A DNA stretch of 28,629 bases from Patescibacteria group bacterium. GTDB taxonomy: Bacteria; Patescibacteriota; Minisyncoccia; Minisyncoccales; Staskawiczbacteraceae. Shown here piece after piece: positions 147-20,821 of the stretch; within the stretch, counting starts at the first letter, position 1; each line of letters begins with the position of its first letter. Made by a program: the position numbers and the translations under genes. Under the pieces are notes generated by a model. It was given only the letters and a program-made list of their open reading frames with translations, did not search any database and was not told the DNA's origin. The stretch spans positions 1 through 28,629 of the forward strand of contig JAHIEB010000039.1 in NCBI GenBank assembly GCA_018894075.1, read 5' to 3'.

Positions 147-1298
147 ATGGAAATAGACATAAAAGGCTTTCAAAGAGCTCTCAGCCAAATTGCCCAAGAA
201 AGAGGCATTCCGGCTGAGAAGATTATTGAGACCATAGAAGCAGCCATGGCTACTGCTTACAAAAAAGATTATGGCCAAAAAGGGCAGAAGATTAAGGCCA
301 AGTTCAATCCTGTTTCAGGGGCTGTGAAGTTTTGGCAGGTGAAGCTTGTCGTAGATAAAGACATGCTTTATACCGAAGAAGAGATAGAAAAACTGAAAGA
401 GGAAAAAGAATTGCCTGCCGTAGAGGCTTCAGAGCCAGAAGAAGGAAAAAAGATAGTCTTTAACCCTGAAAAGCACATAATGCTCGAGGACGTAAAGGAG
501 AAGAAGTTGAAAGCTGGAGACGAACTGGAAATCCCCTTAGAGGCAAAGACTGATTACGGAAGAATTGCAGCCCAGACCGCAAAACAGGTTATTCTGCAGA
601 AGATAAGAGAAGTCGAAAAAGAAACTATCTTTGGAGAGTATAAGGAGAGAGAGGGCGAGATTACTTCAGGCGTCGTCCAAAGAGTAGAGGGCCACACTAT
701 TTTTATAGATATCGGCAAGACATTGGGGATTTTATGCAAGGAAGAGCAAATTCCAGGAGAGTTCTACAGGCCGGGGCAAAGGCTGAAGTTCTATATCTTA
801 AAAGTTGATGAGACTCCCAAAGGCCCTGCTGTCATGCTCTCCCGCGCATATCCTAAATTAATTTCAAAGCTATTTGAATTAGAAGTTCCTGAAATCCCGT
901 CAGGTGCAGTTGTGATAAAAGCCATTGCCAGAGAGCCTGGGTTTAGGACAAAGGTTGCGGTTTTCTCAACCGAGGAAGGCATTGACCCTATCGGAAGCTG
1001 CGTTGGACAGAGAGGGACAAGGATTATGGCTGTTATAAACGAGCTGGGAGGAGAGAAAATTGACGTAGTTGAATGGCAGGAGGATCCAGCCAAATTCATT
1101 ACCAACGCGCTGGCTCCAGCTAAAATAATGAGCGTTGAAATTGATAAAAAAAATACAGCTAAAGTCACTGTTCCTTCGGATCAATTATCACTAGCCATCG
1201 GAAAAGACGGCAGAAACGTCAGGCTGGCTGCCAGTTTGACTGGATGGAAAATAGATATTGAAGGAGGAGAGGGGGCAGTCGAAGAAACTAATAATTAA
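147..1298 (+). CDS. nusA: Transcription termination/antitermination factor NusA
   Basis: [14 protein letters not shown]1 domain and KH motifs ([25 protein letters not shown]). Start moved to ATG 147 because the ORF-track start lies upstream of the promoter. Confidence 0.97.
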
Positions 1299-1303
1299 AA
1301 ACT

Positions 1304-3319
1304 ATGTCGTACATAATTTTGCCAATTGCAATTTCTGTAATAACCATAGGTTTAGTTGTTTTTTTGATAAAAAGAATTCAAAGATTGCCTTCCGGAGACC
1401 AGAAAATGATTGAAATTCAGAAAGCCATCAGAGAGGGAGCCGTTTCTTATCTCAAGAGGCAGTATAAGACTGTTTTCTGGGTGGCCGTAGTTATTGCCCT
1501 TTTATTAATCCTAGTCTACAGCTTAAATACAGGGAGCCTTGCAAGTGGGTTAATAACAGGCATCGGGTTTTTAATCGGAGCTGCCCTTTCTGCTTTTTCA
1601 GGCTTTATCGGCATGATGGTTTCCACTCAAGCAAATGCAAAAGTGGCTGAAGCTGCAAAAAAAGGATTAAAATCCGCTTTGGGCATCTCCTTTACGGGAG
1701 GGTTAGTCACAGGGCTTTTAGTGGTAAGCTTGGGGCTTTTAGCAGTGTCTGGCTTTTACTTTCTTACAAATGATTTAAAACCCTTGATTGCTTTAGGGTT
1801 TGGAGCGAGTTTAATTTCCGTCTTTGCTAGAATCGGCGGGGGGATTTATACAAAAGCAGCTGACATAGGGGCTGACTTGGTGGGCAAGGTGGAGCAGGGA
1901 ATCCCTGAAGACGATCCGAGAAATCCGGCTGTTATTGCAGACCTGGTTGGAGACAATGTCGGGGATTGTGCGGGCATGGCAGCTGACATATTTGAAACAT
2001 ACGTAGTGACGATAATCGCTACAATGATTTTGGGAGCCTTGCTCTTTCCTGCTTATCCTCAATTTGTAATGCTTCCCTTGGTATTAAGTTCAATCGCCAT
2101 TATTGCTTCTGTGGTCGGAAGTTTGTTTGTCAAGCTTTCTGAAAAGGGCAGCATAATGGGTTCTTTGTATAAAGGAATTATTGCCACGGCAGTTTTTGCT
2201 GCTATTGGCTTTTATCCTTTTGTACAAAAGATGGCTTCAATTGAAGGAGTGTCTTCATCAAGCCTGTATGTCTGCTTGTTAATTGGTTTAGCTGTCGCAG
2301 GCGGTATGTTTTTAATAACCGAGTATTATACTTCAAAAAACCACAAGCCAGTCAAGTCAATCGCTTCTGCCTCCCAGACCGGCCATGCTACGAACATAAT
2401 CGCAGGCATTGCTGTCGGATTGAGGTCTACGGGATATCCTATTATTTTAATCTCTGCTGGAATGCTTTTCAGCTTCTGGCTGTCTGGAATCTACGGCATA
2501 GCTCTGTCTGTTTTAGCTATGATATCTTTGGCTGGAATTGTTGTCGGCGTTGATGCTTACGGCCCGATAACAGATAACGCCGGAGGAATTGCCGAAATGT
2601 CAGGATTAAAAGAAGATGTAAGAAAAGTGACCGACGCTTTGGATTCTGTCGGGAATACGACCAAGGCGGTGACAAAAGGATATGCTATTGCCTCTGCCGG
2701 CCTTGCCTCCGTAGTTCTTTTTTCTGCTTATTCCCAAGAATTGATTGATCTTGGAGTTAGGGCCCAGTTCATGCTGAATAATCCAAAGGTAATTGCCGGT
2801 CTGTTTATCGGCGGCCTTCTCCCTTATCTTTTTGCATCTTTGGCAATGAGCTCTGTTGGAAGAGCGGCTTCAGGGGTCGTGGACGAGGTAAGAAGGCAGT
2901 TTAGGGAAATAAAGGGACTAATGGAAGGAACTGCAAAAGCTGAATATGGAAAATGCGTGGATATAGTGACAAAGTCGGCAATCAAAGAAATGATTCTGCC
3001 AGCCCTAATACCTGTTTTAGCTCCTGTTTTAGTAGGATCTATCTTGGGGGTAGAGGCTCTGGGAGGGTTATTGATCGGTTGTATAGTCACTGGACTATTT
3101 GTCGGAATATCTATGACAACAGGCGGAGCCGCCTGGGATAATTCAAAAAAATATATAGAAGACGGCAATTTCGGGGGAAAGGGTTCTCCTGCCCATCAGG
3201 CTGCAGTCACTGGAGATACTGTGGGAGATCCGTATAAAGATACAGCAGGGCCTGCCATAAACCCTATGATTAAAGTAATAAACATAGTCGCTCTTCTTAT
3301 AGTCGCGTTTTTAGTCTAA
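1304..3319 (+). CDS. hppA: Membrane-bound ion-translocating pyrophosphatase, K+-independent signature
   Basis: [62 protein letters not shown]; many hydrophobic helices. Confidence 0.97.
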
Positions 3320-13697: not shown

Positions 13698-14498
13698 ATG
13701 TTTTCTTTGGACCCTCGAGGGGGGCATAATCGATATAATTTTAAGATCGATTTCTTTGAAAAGTGGACGCCGGAGATGGCCTATGTTTTAGGCTTTTTAT
13801 ATGCAGATGGGTATATTGAAGATGCGGGAAAATCATCAAGGACTCAATATATATCTTTTGGCAGCAAAGACAAAGAGATTATCGAGTTAATAAGATCGGT
13901 ATTAGGATCTAAGCACATAATAAATTATAGAATTCCTAGCAAGGTTTTTTTCCCTGGCGGAAAAACGTATAAATGTGCCGAATTCTATAAATTAAGGATC
14001 GGCAGTAAGAAATGGTTCAGAGATCTTTTGCGGTTAGGGCTTGTCCCAAAAAAATCACTAATAATAAAATTCCCAAATAACATCCCCGATAAATATTTCG
14101 GACATTTCGTCCGAGGATACTTTGACGGAGATGGATGTGTCACTATTAAAAGAGGCAGGGGCGCAAGAGGGCAGACGATTCTAAAGGGAGTAGCCGTCAT
14201 TTTTACTAGCGGGAGCAGACTCTTTTTAGAGGGGTTAAGGAACCGGGCGCATCAAATTGTTGGTTTTAGGAAAAGGATTGTTTATTACGGTAGCCGTAGC
14301 AGGGCATGCTATTTGAAATATAATACGGCCGAAAGCGTGAGATGGTTCCAACTTTTTTATGGCGATTGCTTCAACCTATTTTTAAAAAGAAAATATAATG
14401 TCTTCCAAAAATACTTTCAATTGCGCCCAGTTAGGATTGACAAAGAGACAGCAAAGATATTGAATAAAGGATCATGGCCAGGTATCCAAGTAGTTTAA
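13698..14498 (+). CDS. Free-standing two-motif LAGLIDADG endonuclease-like protein; last 23 nt overlap tRNA-Cys
   Basis: AYVLGFLYADGYI and HFVRGYFDGDGCV motifs, LGLVPKKSL linker, FTSGS. Confidence 0.88.
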   Translation: MFSLDPRGGHNRYNFKIDFFEKWTPEMAYVLGFLYADGYIEDAGKSSRTQYISFGSKDKEIIELIRSVLGSKHIINYRIPSKVFFPGGKTYKCAEFYKLRIGSKKWFRDLLRLGLVPKKSLIIKFPNNIPDKYFGHFVRGYFDGDGCVTIKRGRGARGQTILKGVAVIFTSGSRLFLEGLRNRAHQIVGFRKRIVYYGSRSRACYLKYNTAESVRWFQLFYGDCFNLFLKRKYNVFQKYFQLRPVRIDKETAKILNKGSWPGIQVV

Positions 14499-14639: not shown

Positions 14640-14706
14640 CACGCGTTTTTAACTATTTTTGTTCATAAATTTTCTCGATTTTGGCAAAAACAAGTCACGA
14701 GTCGAG

Positions 14707-14732
14707 CCACCTTTTGATTGAGGTGGTTTTTA
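14707..14732 (+). repeat. Copy 1 of a 26-nt hairpin repeat (terminator-like)
   Basis: CCACCTTTTGATTGAGGTGGTTTTTA; 24/26 identical to 20077-20102. Confidence 0.7.
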
Positions 14733-14853
14733 TTTACCGAAAATCCCTTGCTCTGCAATTAAAACATGAGGGGCTGTGGTGTGGGGATATTATTTCTCAA
14801 GAAAGTTTTACATAAGCGGAAATAATCTGATTAAATTTTTAACTATGCAAACG

Positions 14854-14880
14854 AAAAGCCCGAGGCACCCCGGGCTTTTT
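14854..14880. terminator. Bidirectional terminator-like hairpin
   Basis: AAAAGCCCG-AGGCACCC-CGGGCTTTTT. Confidence 0.7.
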
Positions 14881-14955
14881 GATTTTACAATGATTATCTT
14901 GGGCTGAAATTATCAAAATAATCTTTAAAATATTTAATCACCCCCCCCCTTTTCG

Positions 14956-15645
14956 TCAGCGGGTATTTTTTCGGGTTCTTTTTTCTTTTAAGTCTAACAC
15001 CCCCCTAATCCCCGCTGAATCGACTCTGTCTTTCTTATTTAATTCCGCAATTTCTTCTTTTGATAATCTACTATCCGATCCGCTTCTGTCTTTATCGGTC
15101 GATGCCCCTATGCGTCTTTGTTTTTCGGCGAACAAAGCATCCCTAACGGCTCTCTGCTCATCCCATTGATTTTTCATCTCCGGAGTCATTCTTTTCCCAA
15201 GCCTTGCTTTAGTTTGTAGTACGCCCTCAATATATTTAAGTGCATCGTCAACTCCTTCCACTTCTGGTCTGTCTGCACCTAAAACAATATTCTCTATCGC
15301 AAGAGCAGATCTTTTATCTCCCCTTTTACCCGATTCAGACAATGCTTTTGCATATCCAATAATAGCACCCTTTGCTTCTGAAAAACTTAATGGCGTAGCG
15401 CCATTTTTATCCCTTTCGGCCAGATTTGCCTCAACGACTATTTCTCTAACCGCATCGTGCCAAAAACCATTTTTCTCCAGAATACATTGTCCAGCGTCAT
15501 ATCTTTCGTTAGCAAAATCATAACCAGCTTCGCTTAATGCCTTGTGATTTTGTGGCTGCTTAACTCTGTCTAAAACACCCTGCATTTTAAGAGCAATTTC
15601 TTCGCTTTTATGTTGCTCCGAAGAGCTTGTTTCTGGTGATTGCAT
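14956..15645 (-). CDS. Hypothetical charged helical protein (229 aa)
   Basis: Long ORF with AT-rich upstream region; no recognised family. Confidence 0.75.
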   Translation of the reverse strand: MQSPETSSSEQHKSEEIALKMQGVLDRVKQPQNHKALSEAGYDFANERYDAGQCILEKNGFWHDAVREIVVEANLAERDKNGATPLSFSEAKGAIIGYAKALSESGKRGDKRSALAIENIVLGADRPEVEGVDDALKYIEGVLQTKARLGKRMTPEMKNQWDEQRAVRDALFAEKQRRIGASTDKDRSGSDSRLSKEEIAELNKKDRVDSAGIRGVLDLKEKRTRKNTR

Positions 15646-15970
15646 ATTTTTTATTTTCTTTAATAATTTATGACAACTTTTTCAACTGATTCTTCTTGCA
15701 TTAATAGCAGCTAAAGCCCTTATTAAAATAATGACCGAAGGCTGGCACATTACCGAATATTCCCAACATTGTTTTAGTAATTAAGGTGTCACTCGGATTA
15801 TTTTTTTCTCCCAACGCAACGCCCAGCAAATAAATCAATAACATTTTTCTTATTTATTTTTCCATAATAACCATTTAGTTTTTACTTGATCTTAAAATTT
15901 ATCAAGTTATTTTTTATATTTTACTCTAAAATCAAGAAAAAGCAAAGTCGTAAAAAACCTATAATCAACA

Positions 15971-15998
15971 TTGAAAAATATCAAAATCTTAATATAAT
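15971..15998 (+). promoter_or_regulatory. Sigma70-type promoter
   Basis: TTGAAA, 16 nt, TATAAT. Confidence 0.55.
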
Positions 15999-16012
15999 TT
16001 AACCAAAATTAA

Positions 16013-16234
16013 AGAAAATTTAAAAGAGAAGTAGCAAAGTTTAACGAAAGAACCCGGGAACTCATCCAGCTTATAGAAAGATCAATATCTATTACGGAAT
16101 GTTTAGAAGTAGAATGGAAAAAACGGTTGGATAGAGACGAAGATTTTTACACTGACAAGGATAAAAATTTAAGTGTTTTCAGTTGGAAAAATTGGGAGCT
16201 CTCAAGACAAGAATGGATTGTACCTACAATATAA
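16013..16234 (+). pseudogene. Start-less 73-codon open frame, probable gene remnant
   Basis: RKFKREVAKFNERTRELIQLIERS...RQEWIVPTI*; in-frame TAA immediately upstream and no 5' ATG. Confidence 0.35.
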
Positions 16235-16288
16235 CCAATTCCTTCAGTTTATTCGTAACTACTTACTTAATAGAAGGAAGCCGAGGCA
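16212..16288. repeat. Copy A of a structured non-coding repeat of about 77 nt
   Basis: First 67 nt are 57/67 identical to 18943-19009; shared CGAGGCA tail. Confidence 0.85.
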
Positions 16289-16308
16289 AAGTAACAGTAG
16301 ATTAAAAC

Positions 16309-16343
16309 AAGCAACCCCCCCCTTTAATTTTTGGTGGCTTTTT
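16309..16343 (+). terminator. Degenerate CCACC/GGTGG-family hairpin plus T run
   Basis: AAGCAACC-(C)n-TTTAATTTTT-GGTGGCTTTTT. Confidence 0.45.
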
Positions 16344-16359
16344 GATAGAGTAAATCAAT

Positions 16360-17139
16360 ATGGACAACCAAAAAATATTTAATCAACAATATAAAAATCC
16401 TTCAAATTTTGTCAAACGGAGAGTATCACACGAAAAGTTTAGCACTAATAAATACAACTGGTACAAATATGTATTTGACCATTTTAATTTTTCTGCAAGG
16501 TGCAAAATTTTGGAACTCGGCTCGGGCTTAGGGACATTATGGCTCAATAATCAAGAAAGAATCCAGAAGGATTAGGATATTACATTATCTGATTCTTTCC
16601 AAGAAATATTAGATAAAGTGAAGGAAAATCTTAAGGAAGTAAACCATCCATTTAATTTTCAGCTGATAAGTGCTGAAAATATACCATACTCAGACGCTAC
16701 TTTTGATGGGGTAATTGCAAATGGCTTGCTTTATCTTGTCTCTGATTTAGAAAAAACGATAAAAGAAATAGCGCGTGTGATTAAATTTGGGGGAATGCTG
16801 ATTGCTTCAACCAGCGGTAGTAAATATATGAAAGAAGTAGAAGATTTAATTATAAAAACTGACCTTCCTATTCATAGAAATTATACTAAGCATTCTTTTT
16901 CTTTAGATAATGGGAAAGAATCACTTTCTCAAAATTTTTCCAGGGTTGAGGTTTTCCGTAAAGGAGATTCTTTATTAGTCACCGAAGCCGAGCCGCTTGC
17001 CGAGCATATTTTATCCACCAATGAAAATTTAAGCGAAGAACAAGTAAAACAGGTGCGTGTTTTTTTTGACGAATATTTTAAGAAAAATAAGCAGTTAAAA
17101 TTTACAATAGATACGGGCTTATGTATCGGAAAAAAATAA
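16360..17139 (+). pseudogene. Class I SAM-dependent methyltransferase interrupted by one in-frame TAG (16573-16575)
   Basis: ILELGSGLG motif I; the frame continues QKD*DITLSD..IPYSDATFDGVIAN; the two ORF-track pieces share one frame. Confidence 0.85.
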
Positions 17140-17168
17140 ATAAGGAGGTAATAAAATTTAATTAAAAT

Positions 17169-18203
17169 ATGGCAGAAAATATTGAATCTCGCTTAGGCTC
17201 CGAAGAGCCAGAAACCCCGGATCAAAAGAAGTTCCGAGAAGAACTGGGAGAGATGGCCGAAAAGGCAAGGCAAGAAGCAGCCGAAAGCCCCAAGCAGGAG
17301 GGGCTGGATTTGGCTGAATTAACAAAAAAAGAAAAAAAAGACCTTAAGCGCTGGCGTTCAGAGCAACAAAAAGGCGAAGTAGAGACAACTCCAAAAGATG
17401 TCCTGCCAGAAAATCCGGATTTAAAAAAACTTATGACTGCGGTAAAAAAGGGGGTCAAGAGAGCGAGAAGAGAAATAGCAAAAAACCCAAAAAAAGGGGG
17501 CTTGGACCTAGCAGAGGGGGAAGACGCAGAAAAGAAATGGAGAGAAGCCGAGAGAGAGGTCTCCCCAGAGTTTATTGAGGCGCTAGAGAAAACGCCACTT
17601 GGTCCAGAAAACCAGGTTTGGATTTTACTTACTAAGGCTGGATTAAAACCGGCGTCCTGGCTTGATAAAGATATTAAAAGAACGGAGCATGGAAAAGTAA
17701 CAGAGTTTTTAAAGAATGAAGAAGTCCACCAACTTGTTTCTTTTTTAGAAGCCTTTTTTCCTTGCGTAGTTGAGAAAAAAACCGTTGATATAGTAAAAAA
17801 TAGACGAGGAATTTGGGTTGGTGTCCCGTCCGAAAAAGGACGCAAAATCGGCGAGGAAGAAAGGTTGGATTTTATCATAGGTAGCAACAAAGAAAATTTA
17901 GAGAAAATTGTTTCAGCACTTGAGGCGAAAGATGATAGGAAAATTGGATTAGCACTTGGTTTTGAGCCGACGGCGGTAGAAGCTTTTTGCGGGAAAGGGA
18001 AACTTGTAGATAATGAGAAATTGCCAGACGAAGCTTTGTTTAGTGAGGCATTTGTATTTAGTCCCAGCAGGCTTTCGGCCGATAATTGGCTGAAAGAACT
18101 GGCCCAACATCAAAAATGGGCAGATTACGTAAAAAAAACAAGCCCAAGTCTGTTTAACAGAATGATGGGTTTTCAAAAAGAGGTAAAAAAAGAGGCAAAA
18201 TAA
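17169..18203 (+). CDS. Hypothetical protein (344 aa): charged, repetitive N-half and globular C-half (AGLKPA...LGFEPTAVEAF)
   Basis: Long ORF with plausible composition; family not confidently named. Confidence 0.8.
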   Translation: MAENIESRLGSEEPETPDQKKFREELGEMAEKARQEAAESPKQEGLDLAELTKKEKKDLKRWRSEQQKGEVETTPKDVLPENPDLKKLMTAVKKGVKRARREIAKNPKKGGLDLAEGEDAEKKWREAEREVSPEFIEALEKTPLGPENQVWILLTKAGLKPASWLDKDIKRTEHGKVTEFLKNEEVHQLVSFLEAFFPCVVEKKTVDIVKNRRGIWVGVPSEKGRKIGEEERLDFIIGSNKENLEKIVSALEAKDDRKIGLALGFEPTAVEAFCGKGKLVDNEKLPDEALFSEAFVFSPSRLSADNWLKELAQHQKWADYVKKTSPSLFNRMMGFQKEVKKEAK

Positions 18204-18227
18204 AAATACATTAATCAATTTTTATAT

Positions 18228-18646
18228 ATGAAATCTGAAGATTATAAAAATCTATTAACCGAAGACGAAAAAATTATAAAACCCTTTGTGCCGGAGTCTC
18301 TTTTGAGACGTTTATTTTATTTCCTTAGAAAAAGAGTAGCGCTTATCATAACCAATAAAAAGATAATATATAGGGGAAACTTTGGATATTCAGATAAAAA
18401 TATTAAGATTGAAGAAATAAGTGATGTATTCTTAACAAATGAGTCTTCTGCGGCGGTTCTGGTTGCTAAATCCTTGGAAATTCTAAAAAAGGGAGCACCC
18501 CCTATTGATATTCTGTTTTAGGAGAATTAATCTCAAATGACGTTATGGCCCCTATTTATGAAGGTTCTATATCTGTAGGGTGGTTGTCGGGGTCACAAAA
18601 AGTTGAGGCCCTATCAATGATAAAAAAACTCGTAGGCCAAAAATAA
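18228..18646 (+). pseudogene. Frameshifted gene, possibly bacterial PH-domain-like
   Basis: Frame 1 stops at TAG 18519-18521; the -1 frame continues LGELISNDVMAPIYEGSISVGW...KLVGQK* to 18646; the break is in a T4 run. Confidence 0.55.
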
Positions 18647-18742
18647 TAATTAGCAACAGCGAAAGGTAGAGTTTAGCATCTTTATCTGTCCGTAATCCGC
18701 TATTATATTGATTCCAATGTTGCCTGCTACGCCGTGCCCTTT

Positions 18743-18767
18743 CCCGAGATTAATTTCTCGGGTTTTT
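18743..18767 (+). terminator. Intrinsic terminator
   Basis: CCCGAGA-TTAATT-TCTCGGG-TTTTT. Confidence 0.8.
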
Positions 18768-18784
18768 ATTGTATAATAGAAAAA

Positions 18785-18939
18785 ATGAAAAAAGTTTTCC
18801 TATTATTTATAATCCCATTATTATTCCCACTTCTGTTTTGGCTGAACAAATAGACATTAACACTGCTATATTGCCACAATTGGACGAATTAACCGGCATT
18901 GGACCAACTTACCCTCTCCCGAAGGAGAGGATGCCCTGA
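18785..18939 (+). pseudogene. ComEA-type helix-hairpin-helix DNA-binding protein remnant (frameshifted and truncated)
   Basis: Signal peptide MKKVFLLFIIPLLFP, 1-nt loss near 18827, then TSVLAEQIDINTAILPQLDELTGIGPT; similarity ends at 18909. Confidence 0.7.
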
Positions 18940-18942
18940 ATA

Positions 18943-19018
18943 AATGGATTGTATCCACAATACAACTAATTCCTTCAGTTTATTCATAACTGCCTACTTG
19001 GCAGAAGGACACGAGGCA
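18943..19018. repeat. Copy B of the structured non-coding repeat
   Basis: See copy A; compensatory changes in the CTGCC-TACTT-GGCAG stem. Confidence 0.85.
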
Positions 19019-19042
19019 GAAACGCTGAACCTATAGAGAGTA

Positions 19043-19096
19043 AAGCCACCTTTTTCCGCCTCCGCTAGTTGGCGGATTGTGGATGAAGTGGGTTTT
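19043..19096. repeat. AAGCCAC...GTGGGTTTT hairpin enclosing a TCCGCC...GGCGGA palindrome (REP-like)
   Basis: TCCGCC-TCCGCTAGTT-GGCGGA at 19055-19076. Confidence 0.45.
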
Positions 19097-19113
19097 GATT
19101 TGTAAATTTGGGC

Positions 19114-19142
19114 TTGACATAAATTTATTTAAATGATATACT
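19114..19142 (+). promoter_or_regulatory. Near-consensus sigma70 promoter
   Basis: TTGACA, 17 nt, TATACT with TGn. Confidence 0.8.
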
Positions 19143-19188
19143 TAAAAAGGTAGAAATATTATAGACCCCAACTCAAAGGAGACTTCAC

Positions 19189-19491
19189 GTGGGAACCTAC
19201 TACAATCCCGGTACAGAAGTGCAAACTGTGGGCCGCAAACTTAATGACAAGGGCCCAGACGGCTCGGACTACGAAAAGCTAATGGCCCAACTACAGGAAG
19301 GAGAAGTGCTATTCGGCGTAGTGGATGTGTTCGTGGCAGAGAGAAATCCTGTGCGCGCTATGCACATTCAGTCGCAGGATGACCTTACAGGCACTTGGCG
19401 GGCCCATTGGCAAGGTTATTACAAGATACTGGGCTTCTATGCAGTGCCGCGGACGAAGGCCGAACAAGGATGCGGGAGTAGACTGCCATAA
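19189..19491 (+). CDS. Hypothetical protein (100 aa), GC-rich, GTG start
   Basis: AAGGAG SD, own promoter and terminator. Confidence 0.75.
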   Translation: MGTYYNPGTEVQTVGRKLNDKGPDGSDYEKLMAQLQEGEVLFGVVDVFVAERNPVRAMHIQSQDDLTGTWRAHWQGYYKILGFYAVPRTKAEQGCGSRLP

Positions 19492-19527
19492 TTATCTCGC
19501 CCGGTTCGGCAACGTTTTACCTCGCAT

Positions 19528-19557
19528 AGCCCTACACAATCGTGTGGGGCTTCTTTT
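19528..19557 (+). terminator. Intrinsic terminator
   Basis: AGCCCTACAC-AATC-GTGTGGGGCT-TCTTTT. Confidence 0.75.
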
Positions 19558-19614
19558 GTACATAAATTCTGATATGATTTATAAATACTATTAAACAATC
19601 GAGTTATAAAATTT

Positions 19615-20007
19615 ATGTCAAATATTTTGAAGGCTCCTAAAAAATCAATAATATACGAAGATGAATTGTTGTATGTCTGCCTGGCAAAAGAACCGATTGT
19701 TATCGGCCACACTATCGTTGTTTTCAAGCAGGATGTTTCTGATTTGAGCAAACTGTCGGACAGAGATTATGATTATCTGATGGACACGGTTTTTGCCACC
19801 AGAAACGCTCTAATAAAAACTTTGAATGTCAAAAAGGTTTATCTACTTTATATGGACGAAACAAAACACGTGCACTGGCATTTAGTTCCGAGGTATAAAG
19901 AGAGAGGATTTGGTGTTTTTAAAAAAGAAGTTACCGTAATAAAAGATTTCTCTTTGGCTCACAAAATTCACAAGAATCTAATATTTATTCGCGACCAAAG
20001 ATTTTAA
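19615..20007 (+). CDS. HIT family protein
   Basis: GHTIVV and HVHWHLVPR histidine triad. Confidence 0.9.
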   Translation: MSNILKAPKKSIIYEDELLYVCLAKEPIVIGHTIVVFKQDVSDLSKLSDRDYDYLMDTVFATRNALIKTLNVKKVYLLYMDETKHVHWHLVPRYKERGFGVFKKEVTVIKDFSLAHKIHKNLIFIRDQRF

Positions 20008-20076
20008 ATCAGGATTTTAAGTATATCCCAACCTGGTTCCAATTAAGTCGCACCACCGGAGCTATGTTTTTAAAAC

Positions 20077-20102
20077 CCACCTTTTAATTGTGGTGGTTTT
20101 TA
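20077..20102 (+). repeat. Copy 2 of the 26-nt hairpin repeat
   Basis: CCACCTTTTAATTGTGGTGGTTTTTA. Confidence 0.7.
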
Positions 20103-20210
20103 AATTAAGCAAAACCTAACCGCTTGATCTCCTTTAGTCTTTCCTTCAATCCGGCTATATATTCCCTGTCCTCAAAAAGTATAATAAGATTTAGACTTGA
20201 GCACATAACT

Positions 20211-20236
20211 AAAAACTCCCCGCAAGGGGAGCTTTT
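20211..20236. terminator. Terminator at the end of the 3D-domain gene
   Basis: AAAAA-CTCCCC-GCAA-GGGGAG-CTTTT. Confidence 0.75.
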
Positions 20237-20723
20237 AGTCTTCTAAAACTTCAATATACACAATATCTGCGCCGAAGTTCTTGGCTTCTTTAGTGCTGTC
20301 CATCCAGATATCCAAATGATAGTCTCCCTTTCTCTTATTCATTCTATCCTGTACGGTGAACACTTTGTTTCCATACAAGCTTGGGATTCTAACTTTGGTT
20401 CCGAATGAAAGCAAGTTGTTGGCAACTATTCCGTCTCTGACAGTTTGGCCAGAGGCGGTAATAAATGGGGTAGAGTCTGTTTGCTCAACAGTGCTTGAGT
20501 AAGCAGTCACAACCATTTTAATCCGTTTTGCCACTTTGTAAGAATCAGCTGGATTTGTCTGCAAGATGGTGTTTTCCTGTGCAGTGGATATATTAGAGTT
20601 TTGAGGAGCAATCAGATCTGCTCTAGTGCCTGTAGGCAGGAAGATTTCAATGCTTCCTGTGGCTAAAACCGTCACCATTAACAAGCTTCCAAGGGCTCTC
20701 TTTAAGTGCAGTTTTATAGTCAT
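20235..20723 (-). CDS. Secreted 3D (Asp-Asp-Asp) domain protein, putative cell-wall lytic transglycosylase
   Basis: Signal-like N-terminus, VTAYSS..QTDSTPFITASG, TVQDRM, HLDIWM, FG motifs. Confidence 0.9.
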   Translation of the reverse strand: MTIKLHLKRALGSLLMVTVLATGSIEIFLPTGTRADLIAPQNSNISTAQENTILQTNPADSYKVAKRIKMVVTAYSSTVEQTDSTPFITASGQTVRDGIVANNLLSFGTKVRIPSLYGNKVFTVQDRMNKRKGDYHLDIWMDSTKEAKNFGADIVYIEVLED

Positions 20724-20757
20724 ATAATTTAAAAACCCCTTTCGGAGTTATGCAACC

Positions 20758-20786
20758 ATAATAGCATATTATATCGTCCCTGTCAA
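20758..20786 (-). promoter_or_regulatory. Promoter for the 3D-domain gene
   Basis: Minus strand TTGACA, 17 nt, TATTAT with TGn. Confidence 0.75.
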
Positions 20787-20821
20787 GGATTATACAATGC
20801 TGTCTCTCTTTTGTCAAATTT

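Follow-up and report, generated by a model that had tools for sequence, protein, structure and literature searches.

Two diverged repeat copies in a Patescibacteria genome as probable remnants of large serine recombinase attachment sites

What kind of element is a short repeat that occurs twice in a genome, each time at the end of a broken gene? The question is raised by contig JAHIEB010000039.1 of the Patescibacteria group bacterium assembly GCA_018894075.1, analyzed here as a single window of 28,629 nucleotides, in which two copies of a sequence of about 77 nt (copies A and B) lie less than 3 kb apart. An earlier note on this DNA had proposed that the copies are a novel structured non-coding RNA (ncRNA) or cis-regulator, or else a MITE-like or single-stranded hairpin recombination site. 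Comparison with homologues from other genomes and from metagenomes leads to a different answer: each copy is very probably the P′ arm of an attachment site belonging to an integrative element that a large serine recombinase (LSR) mobilizes, and both would be scars of such elements.

Coding constraint and RNA structure in the repeat family

A repeat search returned the two copies (A, 16212–16278; B, 18943–19009; direct orientation) as one two-copy family with 57/67 identical positions (85%). All 10 differences over the 67-nt span are transitions, and the likeness extends past that span, across a 1-nt indel, to about 16288 and 19018, so that the earlier description of the repeat was confirmed. 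When the whole assembly of the window's own genome (G000; 528 kb in 85 contigs, about 96% complete) was searched, A and B were the only copies found. Homologues were collected by an exact-pattern scan of a species collection, which gave 5 true loci, and by a metagenome scan, which gave about 27; after deduplication, 21 distinct sequences were retained, the window's two copies excluded. Fetched loci, including metagenome contigs, carry L labels below, and recombinases or other protein homologues carry P labels.

Every homologue can be read in one frame from the ATG inside GAATGG, giving M-D-C-x-H-N-T-T-(N-S)-F-S-(L/I/V)-F-V-T-T.... Summed column entropy over 23 sequences was 14.6, 9.4, and 21.2 at codon positions 1, 2, and 3, respectively, the third position being the most variable. 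All indels among homologues were multiples of 3, and serine codons alternated between TCN and AGY, including the TCC of the TCCTTC motif that had been taken for one side of a stem. The pN/pS ratio (non-synonymous to synonymous polymorphism; 15 codons, 11 non-window sequences) was 0.34, and no stops were present in the coding frame versus 12 and 16 in the other two frames. By its open frame, codon-position bias, indel lengths, and pN/pS below 1, the repeat thus behaves as protein-coding sequence, and its frame is continuous with full-length recombinase open reading frames (ORFs). The statement that no frame shows a pattern of synonymous change holds roughly for A versus B, which are decaying relics, but fails once homologues are added. 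Tail codons 1–7 were invariant even at synonymous third positions, which fits a putative double constraint, on coding and on the binding of protein to the DNA.

The proposal of a structured ncRNA or cis-regulatory RNA rested on a 5′ hairpin and a three-way stem, said to be kept by compensatory changes. Its sequence motifs are indeed present (ATTGT-N4-ACAAT; TCCTTC/GAAGGA; TACT..AATA in A and TGCC..GGCA in B), two A/B double changes preserve a 4-bp hairpin, and at some loci (L034, L036, L072) a TATAAT-like box precedes the repeat by about 20 nt. The copies do not, however, fold the same way as had been claimed: their minimum-energy folds differ, and relative to dinucleotide shuffles copy B was more stable (z −2.4), whereas copy A (z −0.11) and four homologues were no more stable than the shuffles. 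In a gap-free alignment of 13 sequences the stem columns of helix 1 (ATTGT-N4-ACAAT) were invariant, and this helix is for that reason uninformative on covariation; helices 2–4 were paired in 55%, 56%, and 40% of cells. Every covariation measure was equal to that of shuffled controls (n = 500; score 224/500), and a +3 slide scored higher. The RNAalifold consensus consisted of the invariant core hairpin alone (−2.1 kcal/mol), with no covarying pair, and none of 4227 Rfam models matched at the repeats, either at gathering thresholds or, over 15800–19300, at E up to 10. Neither a covariance-model match nor a structure backed by covariation was therefore obtained. The compensatory changes are real for the A/B pair and disappear across the 13 sequences; they are a two-sequence coincidence and, read as codons, amount to Thr/Ala and Ile/Ala replacements between two relics in decay. 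As the variation is also patterned by codons, with indels in multiples of three, a structured RNA is extremely unlikely, and the proposal is refuted on the two points that the earlier note had itself set for it, in that homologues show no covariation and the repeat is the 3′ tail of a recombinase ORF.

Recombinase frames and integrated elements in relatives

At locus L077 the ATG frame of the repeat is open upstream for 500 codons and encodes the Pfam domains Recombinase (1.6e-12) and Zn_ribbon_recom (5.4e-6). In a homologue search, full-length relatives of this protein were found in two states, either reading through the core of the repeat or stopping at it. P0004 (715 residues), P0005 (711 residues), and P0007 (591 residues) read ...R-R-M-D-C-x-x-N... 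through the core into a tail of 160 or 35 residues, and nine other relatives (541–562 residues) stop at R-R-M-D or within 10 codons after it. The P0005 gene lies on a 20.9-kb contig (L102) with element genes on both sides, encoding a TraG/TrwB-like coupling protein, helicases, and an HTH_17 protein; this contig is the non-integrated, attP configuration. The location of attP within the recombinase ORF is well supported. On L102, the coupling protein and the HTH_17 (excisionase-like) gene occupy 938–3076 and 13938–14114, and some family members may be conjugative or mobilizable elements, not phages.

Serine-integrase sites usually consist of two imperfect inverted half-sites around a central dinucleotide (PMC3783163). 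In the present family, a short core of 8 bp, GAATGGAT, is accompanied by imperfect inverted half-sites, as expected of a site of about 40–50 bp in all. A second 14-mer of the form RTTGT-N4-ACAAY was found in the P arm of three sequences (attR of the same-genus genome G001, L077, and L102) and also in L111; the centers of the P and P′ 14-mers are separated by 24 bp, and the GA of GAATGG lies midway between them. The crossover dinucleotide is probably this GA at the start of the core.

The integrated state was seen most completely on contig C1 of G001, where the 5′ half of a comEA-LTD gene (LTD, lamin-tail domain) stops at ...N-E-W-I at the element (73.7 kb). A 557-residue LSR (PHROG integrase, E 6e-100; Pfam Recombinase) ends 13.5 kb downstream and is directly followed by E-W-I-E-I-Y-N-Q-N-P-T-A-V-D-L-S-G-W..., the rest of the LTD, and then yebC and ruvC. 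The two gene halves align to residues 3–127 and 124–210 of ComEA-LTD from G000, where an intact gene on contig C55 has the same yebC-ruvC neighbors. The left and right junctions (attL and attR) of G001 have GAATGGAT alone in common. When rejoined in silico, attL-left and attR-right restored E-W-I-E-I-Y-N, that is, an intact attB, and attR-left and attL-right gave the attP layout that is found contiguous in L077 and L102. The order LSR, LTD, yebC recurs in two more integrated cases, the P0006 contig and a Nealsonbacteria metagenome-assembled genome (L111). In L111 the recombinase terminates as R-R-M-D-stop, because the ATT-GAG of the target supplies a TGA in that frame, and the LTD is read as E-E-W-I-E-I-F-N. 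An LSR with Resolvase, Recombinase, and Zn ribbon domains was thus found beside the site in G001, L077, L102/P0005, P0006, and L111.

Two other accounts of the split comEA-LTD gene were rejected. A programmed frameshift, suggested by the resemblance of the tail H-N-T-T after E-W-I to E-L-H-N, and an intron or trans-splicing were both discarded because in G001 the genuine 3′ half of the LTD is found at a distance of 13.5 kb, with no ribozyme match in the latter case. A LOOT RNA (RF03000, 75.9 bits) was observed inside the 13.5-kb element of G001 (L037 3384–3498), about 1.7 kb from attL.

In the model to which these relations point, attP would lie inside the 3′ part of the recombinase ORF, which would read ...R-R-M-D-C-x-H-N-T-T...F-S-x-F-V-T-T... 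across GAATGGAT and run 30–160 codons further to a stop and an intrinsic terminator; the P′ arm would comprise the core, the 14-bp inverted repeat, the C-terminal tail codons, and the terminator. The element would integrate at GAATGGAT(T/A), which encodes the E-W-I of the LTD motif E-W-I-E-L-Y-N in the comEA-LTD gene. After integration, attL would consist of the target's 5′ half, the core, and a P′ arm that carries the severed tail codons and the terminator; in attR, the recombinase would end at ...R-M-D-stop and be followed by the core and the remaining 3′ half of the LTD gene.

The distribution of homologues was examined at several levels. When 60 relatives were searched at the DNA level, two matched clearly, G001 and G006 (same family); the repeat was present in 2/36 other genomes sampled from the family, at 1–2 copies per genome, and in 0/400 genomes sampled across the phylum. 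In most homologues the preceding gene, in frame 0, encodes a ComEA helix-hairpin-helix region and the start of an LTD, and it is always cut at the same point, ...I-N-E-I-L-P-S-P-E-G-x-D-x-x-x-E-W-I, where a normal LTD goes on E-L-Y-N. In a subclass of P′ arms (L034; L036/L040/L081/L087; L072), recurring in several samples, the region about 40 nt 5′ of the core has only ~9 LTD-like codons (F-N-G-N-D-S-E-W-I), a TATAAT-like box, and, further upstream, a terminator; such loci might represent either a fixed scar of greater age or insertion at a variant target. Scans of L034, L036, L072, and L047, which have no LTD gene upstream, found no transfer RNA (tRNA) or tmRNA genes.

The conserved ATTGT-N4-ACAAT hairpin close to one end, the abrupt left boundary, and the position at broken gene ends would also suit a miniature inverted-repeat transposable element (MITE), an IS200/IS605-type element, or a single-stranded DNA hairpin recognized by an HUH or tyrosine recombinase. 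Conservation is confined to the left boundary, however, the right side being coding and of variable length (30–160 codons), and neither terminal inverted repeats nor a target-site duplication were found. The copy number and the sparse occurrence given above are likewise not those of such an element, which would be expected to have two defined ends, multiple copies, and a linked or trans-acting DDE or HUH transposase. The enzyme linked to intact loci is an LSR, acting on double-stranded att sites, and no HUH or tyrosine enzyme was seen beside any copy. A MITE, an IS element, or a single-stranded hairpin site is therefore exceedingly improbable. In naming a recombination site, the earlier note had pointed in the right direction, with the correction that the repeat would be a double-stranded att arm of an LSR and not a MITE or a single-stranded HUH or tyrosine site.

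The invariant ATG and the purifying selection on the ORF in the family, together with the terminator that follows and the promoter-like box upstream at some loci, could further be taken to indicate a free-standing gene of 30–40 codons that starts M-D-C-x-H-N-T-T and is expressed by itself from attL, its product serving perhaps as an accessory or directionality factor, with A and B as two functional paralogues. In the attP forms, however, this ORF is a mere continuation of the recombinase, and no consistent Shine-Dalgarno sequence precedes the ATG. In copy A, two otherwise conserved residues are altered (H to Y and T to I), and a 1-nt indel separates the A and B tails after codon 22, which is not as expected of two maintained paralogues. 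We consider such a small-protein gene very unlikely, and return to the tail as a part of the recombinase.

The long form of this tail (160 residues; P0004:556–715, P0005, P0003, and L077 1021–1503) is 59–71% identical among the four sequences. Its structure model has a mean predicted local distance difference test score (pLDDT) of 58, with residues 68–155 at about 70–80. The first ~64 residues, which correspond to the short tail of the window, are predicted to be disordered, and the last ~90 are modeled as a helix and beta-sheet, with weak DUF5655/DUF1801 fold matches (template modeling score, TM, 0.51 or less). With modest confidence, the long tail may hold an alpha/beta domain weakly resembling DUF5655/DUF1801. 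A tentative and rather doubtful extension is that this LSR family of the candidate phyla radiation (CPR) forms a new variant of serine integrase, with attP in its own ORF and a tail swap that would switch the direction of recombination or the activity of the recombinase. In such a variant the excised form would bear the conserved tail of 30–160 residues, the integrated form would be clipped to ...R-M-D-stop, and the detached tail ORF with its invariant ATG would sit downstream of the host comEA promoter. A regulatory role of the tail swap is speculation.

The two copies in the window

The features assigned to the window are collected in Table 1. A and B are nearest to each other, at 82% identity in the variable part versus ≤77% to any other sequence, and belong with L042, L050, L065, and L080 to the subclass with the tail Y-L-A-E-G. 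Two otherwise invariant or near-invariant core positions are altered in copy A, and the core and 14-mer of copy B are nearly intact. The hairpin that had been described after each copy is present, as an AAGC(A/C)ACC...GGTGG-type hairpin with a T run, and hairpins with T runs likewise lie 3′ of the tail in G001, L042, L050, and L080; a terminator scan called neither hairpin of the window because the loops are too long. The position of the copies at broken genes, B after a comEA remnant and A after a start-less ORF, was also borne out, and such a position with a terminator-like hairpin is what the attachment-site model predicts.

Table 1. Features of copies A and B and of the sequence around and between them (window coordinates)
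Feature	Coordinates	Strand	Remarks
Copy A left flank, start-less fragment	16013–16210	+	Corresponds to N-terminal ~60 residues of a 300-residue hypothetical protein
Copy A core	16211–16218	none	Crossover must fall inside; homology of A to all other loci begins at 16210–16213
Copy A recombinase C-terminal tail remnant, 30 codons	16213–16305	+	M-D-C-T-Y-N-I-T-N-S-F-S-L-F-V-T-T-Y-L-I-E-G...
Copy A 14-bp inverted repeat ATTGT-ACCT-ACAAT	16217–16230	none	P′ arm half-site motif; earlier taken as hairpin 1
Copy A terminator-like hairpin and T run	16309–16344	+	Putative remnant of recombinase gene terminator; 16-nt loop
S-adenosylmethionine-dependent methyltransferase gene (Methyltransf_31/11/25), between copies	16360–17139	+	In-frame TAG at 16573–16575
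ORFs of 344 and 97 residues, function unknown, between copies	17169–18521	+	Unlike cargo of intact elements fetched
Copy B left flank, decayed comEA-LTD 5′ part	18785–18941	+	tblastn, tblastx
Copy B core AAATGGAT	18942–18949	none	First base changed from G
Copy B recombinase C-terminal tail remnant, 30 codons	18944–19036	+	M-D-C-I-H-N-T-T-N-S-F-S-L-F-I-T-A-Y-L-A-E-G...
Copy B 14-bp inverted repeat ATTGT-ATCC-ACAAT	18948–18961	none	Sequence, alignment
Copy B terminator-like hairpin AAAGCCACC ... GTGGGTTTT	about 19042–19100	+	Loop enlarged, holds inner CCGCC/GGCGG hairpin; compare G001

The left flank of copy B reads, in order, as a signal peptide, the start of the first helix-hairpin-helix, a deletion with a frameshift, and L-P-S-P-E-G-E-D-A-L-N-K-W-I. 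In tblastn with the intact proteins of G000:C55 and G001 as queries, the signal peptide and helix-hairpin-helix part gave E 3e-7 and the LTD motif E 1e-4; in tblastx the flank was matched by many attL loci, with homology spanning both the comEA remnant and the P′ arm. On this remnant and these matches, copy B would be a decayed attL.

A phmmer search of 1.84 billion representatives with the flank that precedes copy A returned a single match, P0016 (E 2e-5, residues 2–61 to 2–61). The remainder of this gene was not found in G000, where the N-terminal piece alone is present, and the flank showed no significant similarity to comEA-LTD. Its interpretation as a decayed recombinase C-terminus was rejected: tblastn hits were collinear but weak (E 0.005–0.56), a profile of 14 C-termini scored −0.9 bits, and the match to the N-terminus of an unrelated protein was preferred. 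Copy A would carry the same P′ arm behind the 5′ end of a gene unrelated to the target, brought there either by insertion at a secondary site or by later rearrangement. The pair as a whole could reflect two separate insertions, one insertion at a secondary site, or rearrangement within the locus; the cargo, recombinase, and attR of the element are gone.

Given an assembly fragmented into 85 contigs and the good preservation of the B core and 14-mer, one of the copies, B in particular, might instead be the attL of an element still present and active, with its other end on another contig. To the right of copy B, however, 9.6 kb run unbroken into genes for tRNA, ribosomal protein L19, a pseudouridine synthase, FtsH, and S1, and the target-gene half at B is itself broken. 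Neither an LSR of the repeat's family, nor an attR, nor an orphan LTD 3′ half was found in G000, and the sole LSR of this genome, on contig C42, is of another type and abuts a tRNA-Asn gene. An active element at either copy is accordingly most improbable. As no cognate recombinase was found in G000, copies A and B are regarded as relics of the LSR-moved element, and we infer their present inactivity and two-copy history from the same comparisons.

Contig C42 is 2 kb long (locus L091: 547–621 and 580–2001), and the last 42 nt of its LSR ORF run antisense into the tRNA-Asn(GTT) gene. This arrangement points to a second element, again with an att site that overlaps its recombinase gene at the end.

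Several points weigh against the assignment of A and B to LSR attachment sites. Neither copy is linked to a recombinase, an attR, or recognizable cargo, so that the assignment draws on homology to loci in other genomes, and recombination itself is predicted from that homology. Copy A lies behind an unrelated gene fragment, whose similarity to the recombinase C-terminus is not significant. The first core base of copy B is A, not G, which would require a later mutation if crossover takes place at GA. The contigs with the attP form are metagenome assemblies, and a cognate recombinase could conceivably be hidden on unassembled DNA, given the fragmented state of G000. The assignment is nonetheless held with high confidence, on the homology, the coding frame, the in-silico att relations in relatives, and the partners missing from the G000 assembly.

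The methyltransferase gene between the copies is probably a pseudogene. No cargo in common was found when 14650–20800 was compared by tblastx with all fetched loci, and the ORFs between the copies had no match in PHROGs. A synteny look-up in same-genus genomes did not help to delimit an island, as rbfA and HIT were on separate contigs in G002 and were not found in G001. An ORF with a LAGLIDADG_3 domain lies at 13698–14498 of the window, flanked by rbfA and by tRNA-Cys, whose start it overlaps.

The feature of the window is itself ordinary, and the element family behind it is modestly interesting for its attP in the recombinase ORF, its comEA-LTD target, and its CPR hosts. This small CPR genome would have been visited by comEA-LTD-targeting elements at least once, probably twice, and relatives still carry an intact element at comEA-LTD. 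If the reading is correct, the element would be linked to the DNA-uptake gene it interrupts. Through this family, a defined attP/attB pair of about 50 bp becomes available for a serine integrase of an uncultivated lineage, and the family may be a natural case of integration altering the C-terminus of the integrase itself. The locus also illustrates a false-positive pattern: two diverged short copies can look compensatory by chance, and the palindrome of a recombinase half-site can mimic an RNA hairpin. Here, the added homologues decided the question.

Comparison with known integration systems

Inverted half-sites on either side of a small center are the usual layout of serine-integrase attachment sites, and the splitting of host genes by large serine integrases is familiar, as with A118 in comK. 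Measured against phiC31, Bxb1, A118, and SPbeta, as summarized in PMC3783163 and PMC3556126, the present family is alike in its Resolvase, Recombinase, and Zn-ribbon domains, in its short att sites with imperfect inverted half-sites and a small core, in the splitting of a host gene, and in that hybrid attL and attR join in silico to intact attB and attP. Unlike those integrases, it would have its attP inside the recombinase ORF, with a coding P′ arm, and its target is the E-W-I-E-L-Y-N of comEA-LTD in CPR bacteria. The identity block of attP and attB is 8–10 bp, not a central dinucleotide alone, and the window has orphan P′ arms only.

In a non-exhaustive literature search, attP inside an integrase gene was found only for tyrosine recombinases (Mx8 and the SSV1 type), with no serine-integrase case. 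In myxophage Mx8, attP lies within the coding sequence of intP, and the gene acquires a new 3′ end upon integration (PMC6070905). The Mx8 enzyme is a tyrosine integrase, whereas the enzyme here is an LSR whose integrated form would be cut short at ...R-M-D, with no different functional tail. The "suicidal" archaeal integrases of the SSV1 type have the site inside their own gene, which is split on integration (PMC8371274). In those archaeal tyrosine recombinases the catalytic gene is truly broken, whereas here only a tail of 30–160 residues would be lost; after integration, the part beyond the zinc-ribbon/coiled-coil domain would be detached, and the catalytic and DNA-binding domains would be left intact.

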